IMG/VR virus record: IMGVR_UViG_2778261527_000009
Span: 1-5,114 of that record
DNA from: a virus
Taxonomy: Duplodnaviria > Heunggongvirae > Uroviricota > Caudoviricetes
Length of the DNA stretch: 5,114 nucleotides
Strand: one strand, 5' to 3'
Shown here: positions 1 to 5,114 of the stretch, piece by piece
Numbering within the stretch: the first letter of the stretch is position 1
Layout of the letters: every line of letters begins with the position of its first letter
The notes under the pieces: model-generated
Told to the model about the DNA's origin: nothing
What the model saw: the letters and a program-made list of their open reading frames with translations, nothing else
Databases searched by the model: none
Made by a program: the position numbers and the translations under genes

Positions 1-450
1 TGCTGCATGCTCCTGCAGCTTCGAAATTGAGAGATACAGCTCGTCGTTAATTGCTGTCTTCTCATGCGGTTCCACCACACCGTCTTCGATTGCCGAACGA
101 ATCTGTCTGGAATAACTGCCAATCTGTTCAATGACTTCCAGCAGGCGCTGGTTAATATCGGCGTTGTCCACATCCTCGACGTCAGGAAGAGACACAAAGA
201 CGCCATTTGCAGACTGCGCCACAGCGTCAGCAATGAAGTGAGTTCCACCAGCACGTTGCAAAATCATTGCCCATCCCAGCGGGAAAATCTGATCGCCATC
301 GGCACGAAGGCGGTTAAATAATGCGTTTTCTGTTACATCCAGCCAGTCAGCTGCTTCAGCGTAACCACCCGGCAACGCTGCGATAGTTTTTCTGACAGCT
401 TTCACGTACCACTCAGGCTGTTTTTCTACTTTCCAGTGATGCTTACCCAC
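1..450 (-). CDS. CII-like / YdaT-like lysogeny regulator, partial (3' end runs off the window start); GTG start
   Basis: Minus-strand frame is open from GTG (plus 448-450) to position 1 with no stop (150 codons, hand-translated: VGKHHWKVEKQPEWYVKAVRKTIAALPGGYAEAADWLDVTENALFNRLRADGDQIFPLGW...ISKLQEHAA). Strong SD AGGAGG (plus 457-462, 6 nt spacer). Sits immediately downstream of the cro-like gene, the position held by cII/ydaT in lambdoid prophages. Not in the ORF track because it lacks an in-window stop. Family assignment is from memory of CII(CP76)/YdaT-like proteins, not a search. Confidence 0.5.
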   Translation of the reverse strand, partial: MGKHHWKVEKQPEWYVKAVRKTIAALPGGYAEAADWLDVTENALFNRLRADGDQIFPLGWAMILQRAGGTHFIADAVAQSANGVFVSLPDVEDVDNADINQRLLEVIEQIGSYSRQIRSAIEDGVVEPHEKTAINDELYLSISKLQEHAA

Positions 451-703
451 GGTTCACCTCCTGTTCCTGTGGTTTAAACCCATTCTGGTTTTGGCTAGAT
501 TGAAAACGTGCCGGATAAAGAATCTGCATTTCGCTGACTTCACCCTTAAAAAAATTGGCTAAACGTTCTGCAAGCTCGATAGATGGAATCTGCTCCAGCC
601 TCTCAATACGACTCAACGTCGCTGGATTGACTTGAACACCCGCAGCAACATGCTGCAAAGTGAAACCATGCGCCTTACGCACATTTCGTAATGGTGATTG
701 CAT
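443..703 (-). CDS. Cro-like HTH (XRE family) transcriptional regulator
   Basis: 86-aa ORF, divergent from the repressor gene. The N-terminal segment GFTLQHVAAGVQVNPATLSRIERLEQIPS has the look of an XRE/Cro-type helix-turn-helix. SD GGAGG is 4 nt upstream of the ATG on the minus strand (plus 706-711). Confidence 0.8.
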   Translation of the reverse strand: MQSPLRNVRKAHGFTLQHVAAGVQVNPATLSRIERLEQIPSIELAERLANFFKGEVSEMQILYPARFQSSQNQNGFKPQEQEVNRG

Positions 704-800
704 ACGCCCTCCAAATATTGCGCGTTATGCATGTTATTTCACGCAATTATTTTGCGCAAGTTGATTTGCTTATCACGCAATAAAGAAATGTAATAAACGC
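704..800. promoter_or_regulatory. Divergent cI/cro operator-promoter region (OR-like) with three operator-like 15-mers
   Basis: 97-bp intergenic region between divergent cro-like and cI-like starts. Three sites fit TTGC-N7-GCAA: 718-732 (reverse orientation, ATGCATAACGCGCAA), 733-747 (TGTTATTTCACGCAA, weaker left half) and 767-781 (TTGCTTATCACGCAA). A perfect 8-bp palindrome TTGCGCAA lies at 752-759. Putative cI promoter: -35 TTGCTT 767-772, -10 TGTAAT 789-794. Putative cro promoter on the minus strand around 731-759. Confidence 0.55.
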
Positions 801-1493
801 ATGAACATAGGAAACCGAGTCAGACAACTTCGCCAAGCGAAGAACATGAAAATCGCCGATCTCGCTGAAGCAATAGGAGTAGATGCGGCGAACATCTCGC
901 GCTTAGAAACGGGTAAGCAAAAACAATTTACCGAACAAACACTGAGTAATATTGCCAAGAGCTTAGGTGTTGATATTGCTGATCTCTTTACCTCTGCCCA
1001 CAAAAGTAATACTGTATATAAAAACAGTAATGATGAGGATGTTGCGCAGGTGAAGGATGTGTTCCGTATTGAAATGCTGGATATCAGTGCCAGTGCGGGA
1101 AATGGCCTTATCCAGGGCGGTGATGTCATTGATGTGATTCATGCCATCGAATACAGAACTGATAATGCTGTATCAATGTTCGGCGGACGACCAGCCAATC
1201 ACATCAAAGTTATCAACGTTCGTGGGGACAGTATGTGTCCAACCATTGAGCCAGGAGATCTCATCTTCGTTGATGTCAGCATCAATCAGTTTGATGGTGA
1301 TGGTATATATGTCTTTGGTTTTGATGACAAAATATACGTTAAAAGACTTCAAATGATTCCTGACAAACTGCTGGTGATTTCTGATAACCAGATTTACCGT
1401 GAATGGGGAATTACTAGCGAAAACGAACACCGATTCATGGTCTTTGGAAAGGTCTTAATCAGTCAGTCGCAAACCCTTAAGAGACATAATTAA
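801..1493 (+). CDS. CI-like phage repressor (N-terminal HTH_XRE, C-terminal S24 LexA-like autopeptidase domain)
   Basis: 230 aa. N-terminal HTH (KIADLAEAIGVDAANISRLETG). Ala99-Gly100 is a candidate cleavage site. Ser144 in GDSM and Lys181 in VKRL are 37 residues apart, the same Ser-Lys spacing as LexA. No SD precedes the ATG, consistent with a leaderless PRM-type transcript. Confidence 0.9.
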   Translation: MNIGNRVRQLRQAKNMKIADLAEAIGVDAANISRLETGKQKQFTEQTLSNIAKSLGVDIADLFTSAHKSNTVYKNSNDEDVAQVKDVFRIEMLDISASAGNGLIQGGDVIDVIHAIEYRTDNAVSMFGGRPANHIKVINVRGDSMCPTIEPGDLIFVDVSINQFDGDGIYVFGFDDKIYVKRLQMIPDKLLVISDNQIYREWGITSENEHRFMVFGKVLISQSQTLKRHN

Positions 1494-1511
1494 CCTCAAT
1501 ATCCTTCCATC

Positions 1512-1536
1512 GGCCACCGAAAGGTGGCTTTTTATT
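1512..1536 (+). terminator. Rho-independent terminator downstream of cI
   Basis: GGCCACC (1512-1518), GAAA tetraloop (1519-1522), GGTGGC (1523-1528), followed by TTTTTATT. Lies 19 nt after the cI stop. Confidence 0.8.
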
Positions 1537-1546
1537 ACCTATCAAT

Positions 1547-1597
1547 TTGCATATCCCGCAAATATCACTTGCATATCTCGCAATTTAATTTTATCTT
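1547..1597 (+). promoter_or_regulatory. OL/PL-like element: two operator-like 15-mers overlapping a putative rightward promoter
   Basis: Direct repeats TTGCATATCCCGCAA (1547-1561) and TTGCATATCTCGCAA (1569-1583), 22 bp centre to centre, matching the 15-mer family seen between cI and cro. Putative -35 TTGCAT (1569-1574), 17-bp spacer, -10 TATCTT (1592-1597). Confidence 0.45.
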
Positions 1598-1744
1598 TTG
1601 TTCCAGACCAACTACAGGATTACAACAAAATCTGGTTGCAACACGGTGCATGTGTCGTAAGCAGTCAGTAAATGTCAAAAACGAACAGGCAGGACGCCCA
1701 CGAAGTAGCCGCCTGGGGCATATGAAGTCCAGGATGATTCGTTA

Positions 1745-1772
1745 GCAACAAAAAAGCGCCCTACAGGACGCT
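1745..1772 (-). terminator. Rho-independent terminator for leftward transcripts
   Basis: On the minus strand: 7-bp stem AGCGTCC/GGGCGCT (one G-U pair), loop TGTA, then TTTTTGTTGC. On the plus strand the same hairpin has a C-A mismatch and no clean U-tract, so it is better formed on the minus strand. Confidence 0.5.
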
Positions 1773-1774
1773 TA

Positions 1775-1786
1775 GCTCTTTAACAA
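1775..1786 (+). promoter_or_regulatory. boxA-like antitermination element (rrn/nut type), immediately after a hairpin
   Basis: GCTCTTTAACAA (1775-1786) is an exact match to the E. coli rrn boxA core (NusB/NusE binding sequence). It lies in the leader between the PL-like promoter and the first downstream gene and is preceded by the hairpin at 1755-1772, the boxB-then-boxA order of rrn leaders. Confidence 0.4.
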
Positions 1787-1831
1787 TCTGGTCCCCATCA
1801 ACAAGTAACTGATAACTTGAGGAGGTGTGAA

Positions 1832-2038
1832 ATGCACAAAACAGAACCCAAAATCGTCGCGCCCGGATACACAAATGAGGAAATTTACGAGTGGATGGCA
1901 AAGAAGCTGGCAGCTATAAACCAGCTTCGTGAAGTGCTGTCTTATCGACAGGAAATAATAGACTCCTTAAAAAAACTGGATCAGGAAATCACGGTTTTAT
2001 CACAGGATGTTACTTTAGATATTGTGCAGACAAATTAG
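1832..2038 (+). CDS. Hypothetical small protein (68 aa), moron-like
   Basis: ATG at 1832 preceded by a strong SD GAGGAGG (1819-1825, 6-nt spacer). The track's TTG at 1817 is unlikely to be the real start. AT-rich relative to flanks. Product MHKTEPKIVAPGYTNEEIYEWMAKK...; no family recognised. Confidence 0.55.
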   Translation: MHKTEPKIVAPGYTNEEIYEWMAKKLAAINQLREVLSYRQEIIDSLKKLDQEITVLSQDVTLDIVQTN

Positions 2039-2444
2039 GATCCCATTCATTTTCGTCAAAATCATCAAAGTGATGAATTTGTGATCTCCAGTCTCGATAA
2101 TCTAAAAATTTCTGGGCGGTTACGCTTATTTTATCAAGTGTGAGTTCATCCTGAATTGAAAGAAGAAGTTCATCAAATTTCATCTCATTAATCTGTTTTG
2201 GCATCCAGTGATGCTTCATCAGAATAAGGTGAACCAGAGCCTTTTTCCCATTCAACTGATTATAGGGAGTGCCGAATTTCTTCCGGTGCTCATGTAAGAC
2301 AAGGTCCAGAAGAGTAAGTAATGTTGCCCTTGATTCGACTTTGCTTATTTCGACTGATGACACTACCCCACTGATTTCAATGCCCCGATACTTTCCAACA
2401 TTTTCACAGTGGGATTTGTACAGCGTGTAGATATTACCGGACAT
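2010..2444 (-). CDS. Hypothetical protein (144 aa), convergent with and overlapping the 68-aa gene; candidate moron/exclusion gene
   Basis: 144-aa ORF with a mixed, protein-like composition. Weak SD (AAGGAAA) about 6 nt upstream of the ATG on the minus strand. AT-rich. Overlaps the 3' end of the 68-aa gene by 29 nt. No family recognised from memory. Confidence 0.6.
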   Translation of the reverse strand: MSGNIYTLYKSHCENVGKYRGIEISGVVSSVEISKVESRATLLTLLDLVLHEHRKKFGTPYNQLNGKKALVHLILMKHHWMPKQINEMKFDELLLSIQDELTLDKISVTAQKFLDYRDWRSQIHHFDDFDENEWDPNLSAQYLK

Positions 2445-2459
2445 TTCTTTTCCTTTTGC

Positions 2460-2511
2460 GTTGTTGGGGATAACCAGATTAACCGAATCCTTGTTGTTGG
2501 GGAATAACCAG
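2460..2511. repeat. Two near-identical direct repeats (18/19 bp) upstream of the 144-aa gene
   Basis: GTTGTTGGGGATAACCAG (2460-2477) and GTTGTTGGGGAATAACCAG (2493-2511), identical apart from one inserted A, 33 bp apart. They lie 16-67 nt upstream of the minus-strand ATG at 2444. Confidence 0.6.
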
Positions 2512-2805
2512 GTCCACCTCGCCTGATGTGGCTAAAAGCAGGCACATAACAGCTAAGTATTTTCAACCAGAGAGAATCCTTAGCGTTGTGGTGAATGCGG
2601 CTCAGCGCACGCGGGTTAAGGTTGAGGCTGACAGTCGACCTTCTGTGGATACCCACCCGCCTGGTGTGCAACCTTCGCCAGGCACCGGGAGGCACCCGGC
2701 ACCACAACTTTATGCTGTGTGTAGTCCTGGCGGTACCAGTTTGTACCCTTGCTTCCGGCTGGCATCCCCGCACCACTGAAACGACTTCTTCCTGACTATA
2801 AACGG

Positions 2806-3066
2806 ATGGAAGAAAAAATAGACGCCGTAATCCGTGAGAAATACGGGTTACCTCCTGTTATGAGCACGCCAGTGAAATATGCCGATCTCATTATGCTGGC
2901 AACCGAACGCCGCGATCTCGGGCTTGATGATGGCTCTTTCTGGCCTGTGCTGGAAGGTATCCCGGCAACAGAGATGTTCAACGTGATTCCACTGGCTCCA
3001 GGCCATGCCTACGGGATGTTTATGGAACGCTTTAACGAATTATCGGAGTTACGCAAATGCGCATGA
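2806..3066 (+). CDS. HD-domain phosphohydrolase C-terminal remnant (YfdR/YfbR-like), N-terminally truncated; possibly a pseudogene
   Basis: The frame is open from 2725 (stop at 2722-2724) to the stop at 3064-3066. The product contains TPVKY and ADLIMLATERRDL, resembling the C-terminal half of YfbR/YfdR-type 5'-deoxynucleotidases, but no H...HD metal-binding motif is encoded upstream in any frame. First in-frame ATG is 2806 (weak SD); the track's TTG at 2749 is an alternative. Confidence 0.45.
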   Translation: MEEKIDAVIREKYGLPPVMSTPVKYADLIMLATERRDLGLDDGSFWPVLEGIPATEMFNVIPLAPGHAYGMFMERFNELSELRKCA

Positions 3067-3419
3067 ATGTTTTCGAAATGGAAGGGTTTCTTCGTGGGAG
3101 ATGTGTACCGCGAGATCTGAAAGTGAATGAAACGGATGCTGAATACCTAGTGCGTAAATTCGATGCGCTTGAAGCTAAATGTGCAGCACAGGAAAACAAA
3201 GTAATACCAGTGTCAACTGAACTGCCACCAGCAAATGAAAGTGTTTTGTTATTCGATGCTAACGGAGAAGGCTGGCTAATTGGCTGGCGTTCTCTCTGGT
3301 ACACCTGGGGACAAAAAGAAACCGGAGAATGGCAGTGGACATTTCAGGTCGGGGACCTTGAAAACGTCAATATCACTCACTGGGCAGTAATGCCAAAAGC
3401 ACCGGAGGCTGGAGCATAA
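3057..3419 (+). CDS. DUF551-like phage early protein (120 aa; resembles the CPS-53 YfdS class)
   Basis: 120-aa ORF, SD GGAG (3044-3047). Start overlaps the upstream stop (ATG 3057, upstream TGA 3064-3066). Trp-rich C-terminus (WLIGWRSLWYTWGQKETGEWQW) typical of DUF551 proteins in lambdoid early regions. Resemblance is from memory, not a search. Confidence 0.7.
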   Translation: MRMNVFEMEGFLRGRCVPRDLKVNETDAEYLVRKFDALEAKCAAQENKVIPVSTELPPANESVLLFDANGEGWLIGWRSLWYTWGQKETGEWQWTFQVGDLENVNITHWAVMPKAPEAGA

Positions 3420-3724
3420 TGACCACTTTTACCGACAAAGAACTGATTAAAGAAATTAAAGAGCGTATCAGCAGCCTTGACGTGCGAGACGATATTGAGC
3501 GCCGTGCTTATGAAATCGCACTCCTATCTCTGGAAGTAGAACCAGATGAACGCGAAGCTTATGAATTATTCATGGAAAAGCGTTTTGGTGACTTAGTAGA
3601 TCGTCGGAGAGCAAAAAACGGCGATAACGAATACATGGCATGGAATATGACTCTCGGTTGGATCGTCTGGCAGCAACGAGCTGGTATCCATTTCTCAACA
3701 ATCTCACAGCAAGAGGTGAAATAA
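3419..3724 (+). CDS. Hypothetical phage early protein (101 aa; resembles the CPS-53 YfdT class)
   Basis: 101-aa ORF with TAATG stop/start overlap with the upstream gene at 3417-3421. SD GGAG at 3411-3414. Confidence 0.65.
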   Translation: MTTFTDKELIKEIKERISSLDVRDDIERRAYEIALLSLEVEPDEREAYELFMEKRFGDLVDRRRAKNGDNEYMAWNMTLGWIVWQQRAGIHFSTISQQEVK

Positions 3725-4074
3725 TGGAGCCATACAGCCTCACACTCGATGAGGCCTGTCATTTTCTCAAGATATCCAGACCGACTGCCATTAACTGGAT
3801 ACGCACAGGGCGTCTTCAGGCAACACGCAAAGATCCCACTAAGAATAAATCTCCTTACCTCACAACACGACAAGCCTGCATTGCGGCTCTTCAGTCTCCG
3901 CTGCATACTGTCCAGGTGAGCGCGGGTGATGGCATAACAGAGGAAAGAAAATGTCACTCTTCCGCAGAGGTGAAATATGGTACGCCAGTTTCACATTGCC
4001 GAACGGTAAAAGATTTAAACAGTCTCTTGGAACAAAGGACAAAAGGCAGGCGACAGAACTCCATGACAAGCTAA
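3724..4074 (+). CDS. xis: Excisionase (Xis), HTH DNA-binding, P22-type
   Basis: 116 aa starting [31 protein letters not shown], an excisionase-type HTH. TAATG overlap with the upstream gene at 3722-3726. Lies directly upstream of int and overlaps it. Length matches P22 Xis as I recall it. The track's longer ORF from 3640 is an in-frame upstream extension. Confidence 0.8.
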
Positions 4075-5114
4075 AGGCTGAAGCATGGCGGGTCAGCAAA
4101 CTTGGTGAAATACCTGATATAACGTTCGAGGAAGCGTGTGTCAGGTGGCTTGAAGAGAAAGCACATAAAAAATCACTGGACGATGACAAAAGCCGGATCG
4201 GATTCTGGCTTCAACATTTCGCAGGAATGCAACTAAGAGACATTACTGAATCAAAAATTTATTCAGCAATGCAGAAAATGACGAACCGGCGTCATGAGGA
4301 AAACTGGAAACTCAGGGCAGAAGCATGCAGAAAAAAAGGGAAACCTGTTCCAGAATACACGCCAAAACCAGCGTCCGTTGCAACGAAGGCTACGCATCTT
4401 TCATTTATAAAGGCCCTACTAAGAGCCGCAGAGCGTGAATGGAAAATGCTGGATAAGGCACCAATTATTAAAGTGCCTCAACCAAAGAATAAACGGATCC
4501 GCTGGCTGGAGCCCCATGAAGCACAAAGGCTGATTGATGAATGTCCGGAGCCATTAAAGTCTGTTGTTGAATTTGCACTGGCAACAGGCTTAAGACGCTC
4601 GAACATCATCAACCTTGAATGGCAACAAATAGATATGCAGCGCCGGGTGGCATGGATAAACCCGGAAGAGAGTAAATCAAACCGCGCAATTGGCGTTGCG
4701 CTGAATGATACTGCATGTCGCGTATTGAAAAAACAAATCGGGAATCATCACCGTTGGGTATTTGTGTACAAGGAAAGCTGTACCAAACCAGACGGAACGA
4801 AAGCGCCAACAGTAAGGAAGATGCGGTATGACGCAAACACAGCCTGGAAAGCGGCGCTGAGACGGGCTGGTATTGATGATTTCAGATTTCACGACTTGAG
4901 ACACACCTGGGCAAGTTGGCTGGTTCAAGCCGGAGTCCCGTTGTCAGTGTTACAGGAAATGGGAGGCTGGGAGTCTATCGAAATGGTTCGTCGATATGCT
5001 CACCTTGCACCTAATCACCTTACCGAACACGCACGGCAAATAGACTCGATCCTGAACCCATCGGTCCCAAATTTGTCCCAGTTAAAAAATAAGGAAGGTA
5101 CAAATGATGTGTAA
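3951..5114 (+). CDS. int: Tyrosine site-specific integrase, P22 Int-like
   Basis: 387 aa with SD AGGA (3941-3944). C-terminal catalytic signature [11 protein letters not shown] ... VRRYAHL (box II His/Arg and the Tyr nucleophile). The N-terminus [46 protein letters not shown] closely matches phage P22 Int as remembered. Confidence 0.95.

Follow-up and report, generated by a model that had tools for sequence, protein, structure and literature searches.

Many lambdoid phages have no N antiterminator, among them SfII, SfIV, SfV, ST64B, phiNP and LLS, along with e14-like and CPS-53-like prophages, and for all of them the question arises how the early-left operon escapes polarity. For LLS, where N is absent, a 2025 study merely guessed at a put-like mechanism (PMC12315714). 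The stretch of viral DNA analyzed here (IMG/VR record IMGVR_UViG_2778261527_000009, positions 1 to 5,114; all of its 5,114 nucleotides are referred to as the window) raises the question at a defined site. An exact boxA, GCTCTTTAACAA, is present at 1775-1786 on the + strand, between a PL-like promoter and an exchangeable gene cassette. We propose, at a probability of roughly one half, that this boxA loads NusB/NusE, and that PL transcription is thereby made Rho-resistant across the mostly untranslated cassette.

The boxA match and its probable position in the PL transcript

The site at 1775-1786 is the sole match to the 12-mer in the window when up to one mismatch is allowed (0.05 expected; matched in 9 of 200 shuffles). 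It is also the sole match to GYTCTTTAANA, the gamma-proteobacterial boxA consensus (PMC5725501), for which 0.03 matches are expected and 6 of 200 shuffles contain one. A sequence-only reading of the same DNA had reported the exact boxA and had judged a 12-nt match unlikely by chance; the scan bears out both statements. The site had also been called "rrn-type": its core is indeed identical to the rrn boxA core GCUCUUUAACAA, but is not uniquely rrn, being homologous also to the nutL boxA found in Xenorhabdus.

The features that surround boxA are the following:

801..1493, + strand: cI-like repressor, 230 amino acids (aa), with helix-turn-helix and S24 peptidase domains (Pfam Peptidase_S24 and HTH_3; annotated as cI in SfII)
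1512..1529, + strand: intrinsic terminator of cI, a 7-bp stem followed by TTTTATT in the terminator scan (annotated as a terminator in SfII)
1547..1597, + strand: PL-like operator/promoter region, read from the sequence
1547-1561 and 1569-1583, + strand: two operators TTGCATATC(C/T)CGCAA, read from the sequence
1569-1574 and 1592-1597, + strand: putative -35 TTGCAT and putative -10 TATCTT, with a spacing of 17
1681..1742, + strand: structured PL-leader RNA element (RNAalifold, covariation)
1745..1773, - strand: predicted intrinsic terminator of the leftward cassette genes, with the stem-loop from 1773 to 1754 and the U-tract from 1753 to 1745
1775..1786, + strand: boxA GCTCTTTAACAA, of orphan nutL type (consensus match, cross-genus conservation, Xenorhabdus homologues)

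Relative to the PL-type promoter/operator region behind cI, boxA is downstream and in sense orientation; it precedes the genes farther along, as the sequence-only reading had it. The leader that bears boxA is found after at least five repressor/promoter types and, for most repressor types, the conserved leader begins 5-15 nt after the end of a good sigma-70 promoter. In ymfK-type relatives the promoter is a consensus one (TTGACA-16-CATAAT), about 105 nt upstream, which puts boxA at about +104 to +115; in the window, whose immunity type has about 70 extra nt, boxA is at about +170. From this anatomy, that is, the position of the promoter/operator region in the window and in its relatives, we infer that boxA lies within the PL (early-leftward) transcript.

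Conservation of boxA and relatives with nutL and N

Conservation was evaluated on 13 distinct versions of the hairpin-boxA unit, one from the window itself, two from viral contigs, one from a Klebsiella phage and the others from 9 further species genomes, which include Enterobacter, Kosakonia (two), Atlantibacter, Raoultella, Pseudescherichia, Symbiopectobacterium and one mislabelled assembly (titled Chryseobacterium). Positions 1-9, 11 and 12 of boxA are invariant in all 13; only position 10 varies (C/A/G), and this corresponds to the degenerate N of GYTCTTTAANA. The versions differ from one another in the length of the A-run before the hairpin, in the loop, in the single spacer nucleotide and in everything from the third nt after boxA onward. 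Since only the degenerate position varies while loop, spacer and 3' flank diverge, boxA looks to be under selection. The unit also occurs in Klebsiella phage Kp4882-1, after a different PL leader and beside a leftward gene; in the decaying genome of Serratia symbiotica (locus L228) hairpin and boxA are both degraded.

The structured PL leader itself is more widespread than boxA. A 19-nt leader probe identified 77 loci in species-representative genomes, about 69 of which were judged real; a consensus boxA is present within 200 nt in 15 of these 69. Ten of the 15 have the hairpin and no N-like open reading frame (ORF), while the other five have no hairpin, and three of the five carry an arginine-rich N-like ORF. 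Xenorhabdus loci L204, L235 and L243 have no hairpin and carry a boxA behind the PL leader that they share with the window; the boxA of L241 and L246 is succeeded, 4 nt on, by GCGCTGAAAAAGCGC, a boxB of the lambda/P22 type. The N-like ORFs, found downstream in L235 (...TARRFERRAEFLAKK...), L243 (...AARRYERRAAFLAKK...) and L246 (...NARKRRHERRKEQ...), match PHROG 271 and score just under the cut-off of Pfam N_peptide. The window's boxA is thus, as judged by homology, an orphan nutL-type boxA: Xenorhabdus shares the PL leader with a boxA-boxB-N arrangement, of which the window has neither boxB nor N.

The arrangement of PL leader, canonical or variant nutL and N-like proteins is seen in Xenorhabdus loci L241 (4235-4400, +), L246 (-), L243 (-), L235 (-), L193 and L208. 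The N-like proteins have a common C-terminus, ...CCMSEVALYSTK..RRRL..G.VTARV, and differing N-terminal RNA-binding motifs.

When all ORFs of the window were compared with Pfam N_peptide and PHROG 271, the same libraries that detect the Xenorhabdus N proteins, no N-like ORF was found. An arginine-rich 31-aa ORF at 1650-1745 was considered as an N candidate and rejected, as it is negative with both Pfam and PHROGs. The lack of N, already noticed in the sequence-only reading, agrees with the report that SfII, SfIV and SfV are devoid of N, cII and cIII (PMC3851460). The only antiterminator encoded by SfII is Q-like. In SfIV, an isolated functional phage, leader, hairpin and boxA are all present. 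The comparison with homologous prophages, suggested by the sequence-only reading both for boxA and for an N-like gene, shows a boxA conserved across genera, N-like genes in Xenorhabdus, and no boxA in the 10-17 kb examined of SfII and of SfV.

The hairpin adjacent to boxA

A single spacer base (1774) separates boxA from a hairpin with stem 1754-1761/1766-1773 and loop TACA. The sequence-only reading had described the pair as a hairpin followed by boxA, in the boxB-boxA order of rrn leaders. The order is correct; the hairpin, on the other hand, is not an rrn-type boxB. One stem pair (1759/1768) is a C.A mismatch on the + strand and a G.U pair on the - strand, and the fold is weaker on the former (-7.5 kcal/mol) than on the latter (-11.5 kcal/mol for the centroid hairpin, with a minimum free energy of -12.1 kcal/mol). 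On the - strand the hairpin is followed by TTTTTGTTG, and it is the top-ranking hit of the terminator scan, with 8 pairs, 5 of them G-C and one G.U, and then TTTTGTTGCT; no + strand terminator is called by the scan at 1754-1773. The 8-bp stem and the U-tract UUUUUGUUG agree with the sequence definition of an intrinsic terminator on the - strand, the only strand on which a U-tract arises, since on the + strand an A-run precedes the hairpin. By these features, the hairpin has, on the - strand, the makeup of a textbook intrinsic terminator for leftward accessory ("moron") genes. In the PL sense, it amounts to no more than a weak, U-poor structure.

The strand asymmetry is constant in about 250 related loci. 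A rare G to A variant at stem position 17 keeps pairing on the - strand only and, in one further variant, the entire hairpin is swapped for a different perfect hairpin, with the - strand U-tract retained; one single-copy stem variant has the opposite asymmetry. The versions from different genera share one stem and have 11 loop forms among them (TACA, TGCA, TATA, CGAA, TGTAA, CGCT, GATT, ATA, CGCA, CGTA, ATT). A loop that varies this freely makes the hairpin unlike a protein-recognized boxB. In several cassette contexts the stop codons of leftward ORFs lie 16-42 nt rightward of boxA. The sequence-only reading would have counted as a refutation a boxA that is just the flank of a minus-strand terminator, with no conservation; the predicted terminator is there, and boxA is conserved across genera.

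An identical hairpin with its A-run, AAGCGCCCTATAGGACGCTT, ends a 104-aa leftward ORF in IMG/VR contig L024, in an unrelated phage context and with no boxA. The terminator is therefore a mobile module by itself.

The exchangeable cassette

In BLAST comparisons with E. coli genomes and viral contigs, similarity to the window is lost at about 1791-1807 and resumes at about 2451-2474. The interval of about 1792-2459, between the PL leader and a GC-rich flank, is a cassette hotspot, in which at least eight alternative gene sets are found (L003, L004, L005, L006-L125). Most sets consist of one leftward gene, of 144-173 aa, and all use the same terminator hairpin. The left flank invariably terminates in hairpin-N-GCTCTTTAACAATCTGG; as the cassette types, at least eight, diverge within a few nt past ...AACAATCTGG, boxA is the final conserved element of this flank. 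No conserved boxB-type hairpin is found 3' of boxA, the types diverging 3-5 nt past it, and no conserved boxC-like sequence was seen downstream in the cross-genus comparison. Most types are without a + strand ORF after boxA. In the window, cassette and right flank contain:

1832..2038, + strand: cassette ORF of 68 aa, PHROG 1744 (annotated by PGAP in L005)
2010..2444, - strand: ECs1072-family phage-associated protein of 144 aa (NCBIfam NF033230, 157.8 bits; PHROG 5286)
2460..2762, + strand: conserved right flank of the cassette, delimited by BLAST breakpoints, which holds a GC-rich, STnc100-like segment (2563-2748)

The 68-aa ORF has a strong Shine-Dalgarno sequence, GAGGAGG, at 1819-1825. It is convergent with the 144-aa gene, which it overlaps by 29 nt (2010-2038), so that the leftward transcript would be antisense to the entire 68-aa ORF before reaching the terminator. 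As for a defence function of the cassette genes, PADLOC found none and NCBIfam yields just the name "ECs1072 family".

Two other observations concern the right flank. Its GC-rich, hairpin-rich segment (2563-2748, +) is hit by the Rfam model STnc100 at 35.6 bits, short of the gathering score (47); at the homologous positions of L003, L002 and L271 the model reaches 35-40 bits, again below threshold and on the + strand every time. STnc100 has been described as a prophage small RNA related to PasD (bioRxiv 10.64898/2026.05.13.724894). An STnc100-like element was also looked for immediately behind the leader of Phytobacter, Kosakonia and mEp237, where Rfam gave no match. A direct repeat, TTGTTGGGGA(T/AT)AACCAG, is present at 2461-2477 and 2494-2511, upstream, in the - sense, of the start of the ECs1072-family gene. 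The region is conserved across genera, where it is visible as a spurious translation, ...SPTTRIRLIWISPTT..., and the repeat may be a promoter or a regulator site for the leftward cassette genes.

The structured PL-leader RNA

The 62-nt structured RNA at the 5' end of the PL transcripts is located at 1681-1742 (+) in the window, at 3006-3067 in L004 and in loci L192-L268; E. coli K-12 has it in e14, in the interval from ymfK to ymfJ (L272, 4609-4681, -; about 1,202,108-1,202,180 of MG1655, minus strand). It spans many genera of Enterobacterales, among them Escherichia, Shigella, Xenorhabdus, Photorhabdus, Yersinia, Serratia, Phytobacter, Kosakonia, Erwinia, Pectobacterium, Rahnella, Raoultella, Kluyvera, Atlantibacter and others, and among isolated phages it is found in SfII, SfIV, SfV, ST64B, phiNP, ZF40, YeP1-3 and mEp237. 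When 56 distinct sequences were analyzed by RNAalifold, a closing helix P1 (1681-1687 paired with 1735-1742) and a stem-loop SL2 (1712-1716 paired with 1729-1733, with a 12-nt loop) were predicted, with compensatory changes at 6 pairs. Besides the closing helix, the element comprises an invariant strand CAGGCAGGACGCCCACGAAGUAGCCGC and a 5-bp stem that covaries, is capped by the loop GGCRUAUGAAGA and is followed by GAUGA. The closing helix occurs as GCGAA/UUCGC, UCGAA/UUCGA, GCAAA/UUUGC and ACGAA/UUCGU; in mEp237, outside the alignment, it reads, by eye, CCACC/GGUGG. In this structure 97.5% of cells are paired, and the covariation score of 0.487 compares with 0.137 for shuffles, none of 500 reaching 0.487, and with 0.077 or less for slid controls. 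Wobble pairs leave the strand ambiguous (4 G.U cells versus 5 A.C/C.A cells); the RNA was assigned to the + strand because its position, just past the promoter and beside the repressor gene, is constant. A covariance model built for the leader, R2, finds one copy per locus (mEp237 73 bits, e14 81 bits), and no second copy, analogous to putR, was detected in 386 kb of related loci.

Other explanations of the leader were considered and rejected. The common motif CAGGAUGA, which had prompted a comparison with put RNA, proved superficial. A put covariance model, R1, built from eight sequences (HK022 putL and putR, HK639, phiEt88, CobraSix, S9-5, UPF_BP1, PdC23), gives 95 bits for putL and 53 bits for putR, and finds no meaningful match in the window or its relatives: with filters off, all hits in the window and L001-L005 are below 9 bits, with E > 1, and none falls at the PL leader. 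A leader peptide, MKSRMIR (1722-1745), is poorly kept, as its frame is not conserved in L058 and L045 and its AUG is replaced by ACG or AAG in other genera; RNA structure is a better explanation of leader conservation. A hammerhead-like reading of GAUGA/CGAA is contradicted by covariation, which pairs the G of CGAA. No Rfam match was obtained at 1600-1830, even at E <= 10, and a literature string search with leader or boxA-flank sequences returned just an unrelated T7 CRISPRi paper. T5-like Providencia phages KY363465 and MW057857 match the leader's 5' half with 84% identity across about 47 nt, in one case inside an annotated repeat_region; this match may be due to chance.

Operons without N and ordinary N/nut systems alike are found behind the leader, so that it is unlikely to be an antiterminator by itself. 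It occupies a classic regulatory position, occurs in e14 of E. coli K-12 and is a candidate for a new RNA family.

Proposed function of boxA and alternative explanations

According to the reading that we favor, to which we assign about one chance in two, boxA RNA emerging after PL firing would bind host NusB-NusE(S10) and, with NusA, NusG and SuhB, would turn the elongation complex Rho-resistant, as in rrn and CRISPR-array leaders. Polymerase could then cross about 0.7-1 kb of mostly untranslated RNA, first the antisense of the cassette and then the GC-rich structured segment, reaching the downstream genes and xis/int without a phage N protein. In this lineage boxB and N are absent, and in their stead stands an exchangeable, mostly leftward accessory cassette, whose predicted terminator abuts boxA on the opposite strand. 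Rrn-type boxA complexes are chiefly anti-Rho. Nus action through boxA alone, against Rho and on long untranslated RNAs, is established for rRNA and CRISPR arrays (PMC7665894; PMC5725501).

Several observations weigh against this proposal. A terminator-like hairpin on the + strand, called by the scan at 2113-2128, might not be suppressed by an rrn-type complex. The GC skew of the cassette region is uninformative, with no clear rut signal. The PL hexamers of the window are weak (7/12), and its promoter is not called by the consensus scan. In E. coli the leader module is almost invariant throughout, so that conservation there does not single out boxA and, since the hairpin stem is as invariant as boxA, nothing more than horizontal spread of the whole unit may be involved. 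Finally, SfII and SfV share the PL leader and have no match to the boxA consensus in the 10-17 kb examined of each; being viable without it, they indicate that boxA is not essential to this type of phage.

These last points would also suit a boxA that remains from a former nutL, the boxB and N of which disappeared as the cassette took over the site, and that, without any present function, persists in a young module spreading as a block. The full boxA-boxB-N arrangement that follows the same leader in Xenorhabdus fits such an origin, as do the uninformative conservation in E. coli and the fact that SfII and SfV manage without boxA. We consider a mere relic unlikely all the same: across genera, where loop, spacer and 3' sequence have diverged, 11 of 12 boxA positions are kept and the variable one is the degenerate position of the consensus, while neutral decay, as seen in Serratia symbiotica L228, affects hairpin and boxA alike. 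Quite unlikely, in our view, is a role on the opposite strand, where UUGUUAAAGAGC, in the 3' untranslated region (UTR) of the leftward genes, would act as an A-rich element that makes the terminator efficient or bidirectional, or would seed a 3'-UTR small RNA, its identity with boxA being coincidental. The hairpin is predicted to act on that strand, the complement of boxA makes up most of the 3' UTR in several cassette types, with stops 16-42 nt away, and the fold shows an AAAGAG tract able to pair with the U-tract. Yet the same hairpin stands as a terminator without UUGUUAAAGAGC in L024, boxA is found without the hairpin in Xenorhabdus, and a terminator flank would not be expected to match the consensus exactly and to vary solely where the consensus is degenerate.

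A partner for boxA, either an unrecognized phage analogue of N or the PL-leader RNA (1681-1742) as an equivalent of boxB or put, is very doubtful. The leader is directly upstream of boxA in nearly all loci, strongly structured and conserved, and several ORFs of the PL operon have no known function; but 54 of the 69 leader-bearing loci have no boxA, Klebsiella phage Kp4882-1 has hairpin and boxA without that leader, and the leader, besides failing the put covariance model, also stands upstream of ordinary N/nut systems in Xenorhabdus. The ORFs adjoining boxA, for their part, differ among cassette types. A further alternative is a suhB-like repression, in which a Nus complex on boxA would block translation of the 68-aa ORF, starting 45 nt downstream, and lower its expression. 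A boxA less than 50 nt from a start codon is the criterion used to find suhB-type targets (PMC5725501), and the Shine-Dalgarno sequence of this ORF is strong; since most cassette types lack any + strand ORF after boxA, such repression cannot account for the retention of boxA across types, and we regard it as highly improbable. Hardly tenable, at this point, is the earlier interpretation of hairpin and boxA as an rrn-leader-like boxB-boxA antitermination site. The order of the two elements is that of rrn leaders; against it stand the weaker + strand fold, with its C.A mismatch and unconstrained loop, the U-tract present on the - strand only, the location of the hairpin at the 3' end of leftward genes and the lack of a conserved boxC-like sequence downstream.

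Protection of PL transcription by boxA may be part of a wider arrangement, which we put forward tentatively and hold to be less probable than not. The hairpin-boxA unit would serve as a portable "insulator" that uses both strands and sits at the edge of the leftward moron cassette nearest to PL, with a moron terminator on one strand and a Nus-loading site on the other, early antitermination being left to host factors alone, possibly aided by the PL-leader RNA. If boxA does act by itself, N-less phage early operons would join rRNA and CRISPR arrays as targets of Nus-factor antitermination, and the insertion of antisense accessory genes into the operon without silencing of xis/int would be explained.

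Other features of the window

The window shares 98% identity with the Shigella phages SfII and SfIV, and 97% with SfV, and is classified as an SfII/SfIV/SfV-like lambdoid prophage, with the order cro, cI, PL operators and then xis/int, which resembles an inverted lambda. Its relatives fall in the e14/CPS-53-like (ymf/yfd) group. Besides those already listed, its genes are:

443-703, - strand: cro-like gene
2809-3066, + strand: 5'-truncated yfdR, PL operon
3057-3419, + strand: gene for a DUF551 protein, PL operon
3419-3724, + strand: yfdT-like gene, PL operon
3724-4074, + strand: xis, PL operon
3951-5114, + strand: int, PL operon

A sharp junction at 2762|2763 is common to all BLAST alignments. 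Relative to L005, the closest relative, about 460 nt are missing at this point and, relative to L003, yfdP, yfdQ and the 5' part of yfdR; this loss explains the truncation of yfdR. In the PR-side operon of SfV (L002, 1354-1542, -) and mEp460 (L269, 854-1042, -), a C4 antisense RNA and isrK are found by Rfam above threshold; C4/isrK is the customary module of antirepressor control.

Comparison with known systems

The put RNAs of HK022 provide N-independent antitermination in a lambdoid phage; putL sits right after PL (PMC9378689), a position held in the window, an N-less lambdoid, by the conserved structured leader described here. The two differ in that the put covariance model does not match the window, whose leader is single-copy, with no putR analogue, and in that leaders of the window type are found also upstream of ordinary N/nut systems.

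With the boxA of rrn leaders, which works with NusB, NusE, NusA, NusG, SuhB and S4, the window shares an identical core, GCUCUUUAACAA, and also the mode of action, proposed here and described for rrn (PMC4807359, PMC6614797), by which untranslated RNA is made Rho-resistant with no phage protein taking part. Unlike the rrn leaders, it has no conserved boxC, the upstream hairpin is no boxB, and the setting is a repressor-controlled phage operon, in which the function is a predicted one. Outside rRNA and N systems, stand-alone boxA elements are known from CRISPR-array leaders of Salmonella and others, where long untranslated transcripts are protected from Rho (PMC7665894), and from the suhB 5' UTR, where boxA regulates the downstream gene (PMC5725501). 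Those are chromosomal host loci with experimental support, whereas the boxA of the window is in a prophage early operon and its role is deduced from sequence.

From the nutL boxA of lambda, P22 and phi21, finally, the window differs by being without boxB or N, by the swap-prone cassette 3' of boxA and by an adjacent hairpin that belongs to the opposite strand. It has in common with them the location in the PL leader beside the repressor gene, the orientation and the core, and relatives sharing its PL leader carry boxA, boxB and N together.

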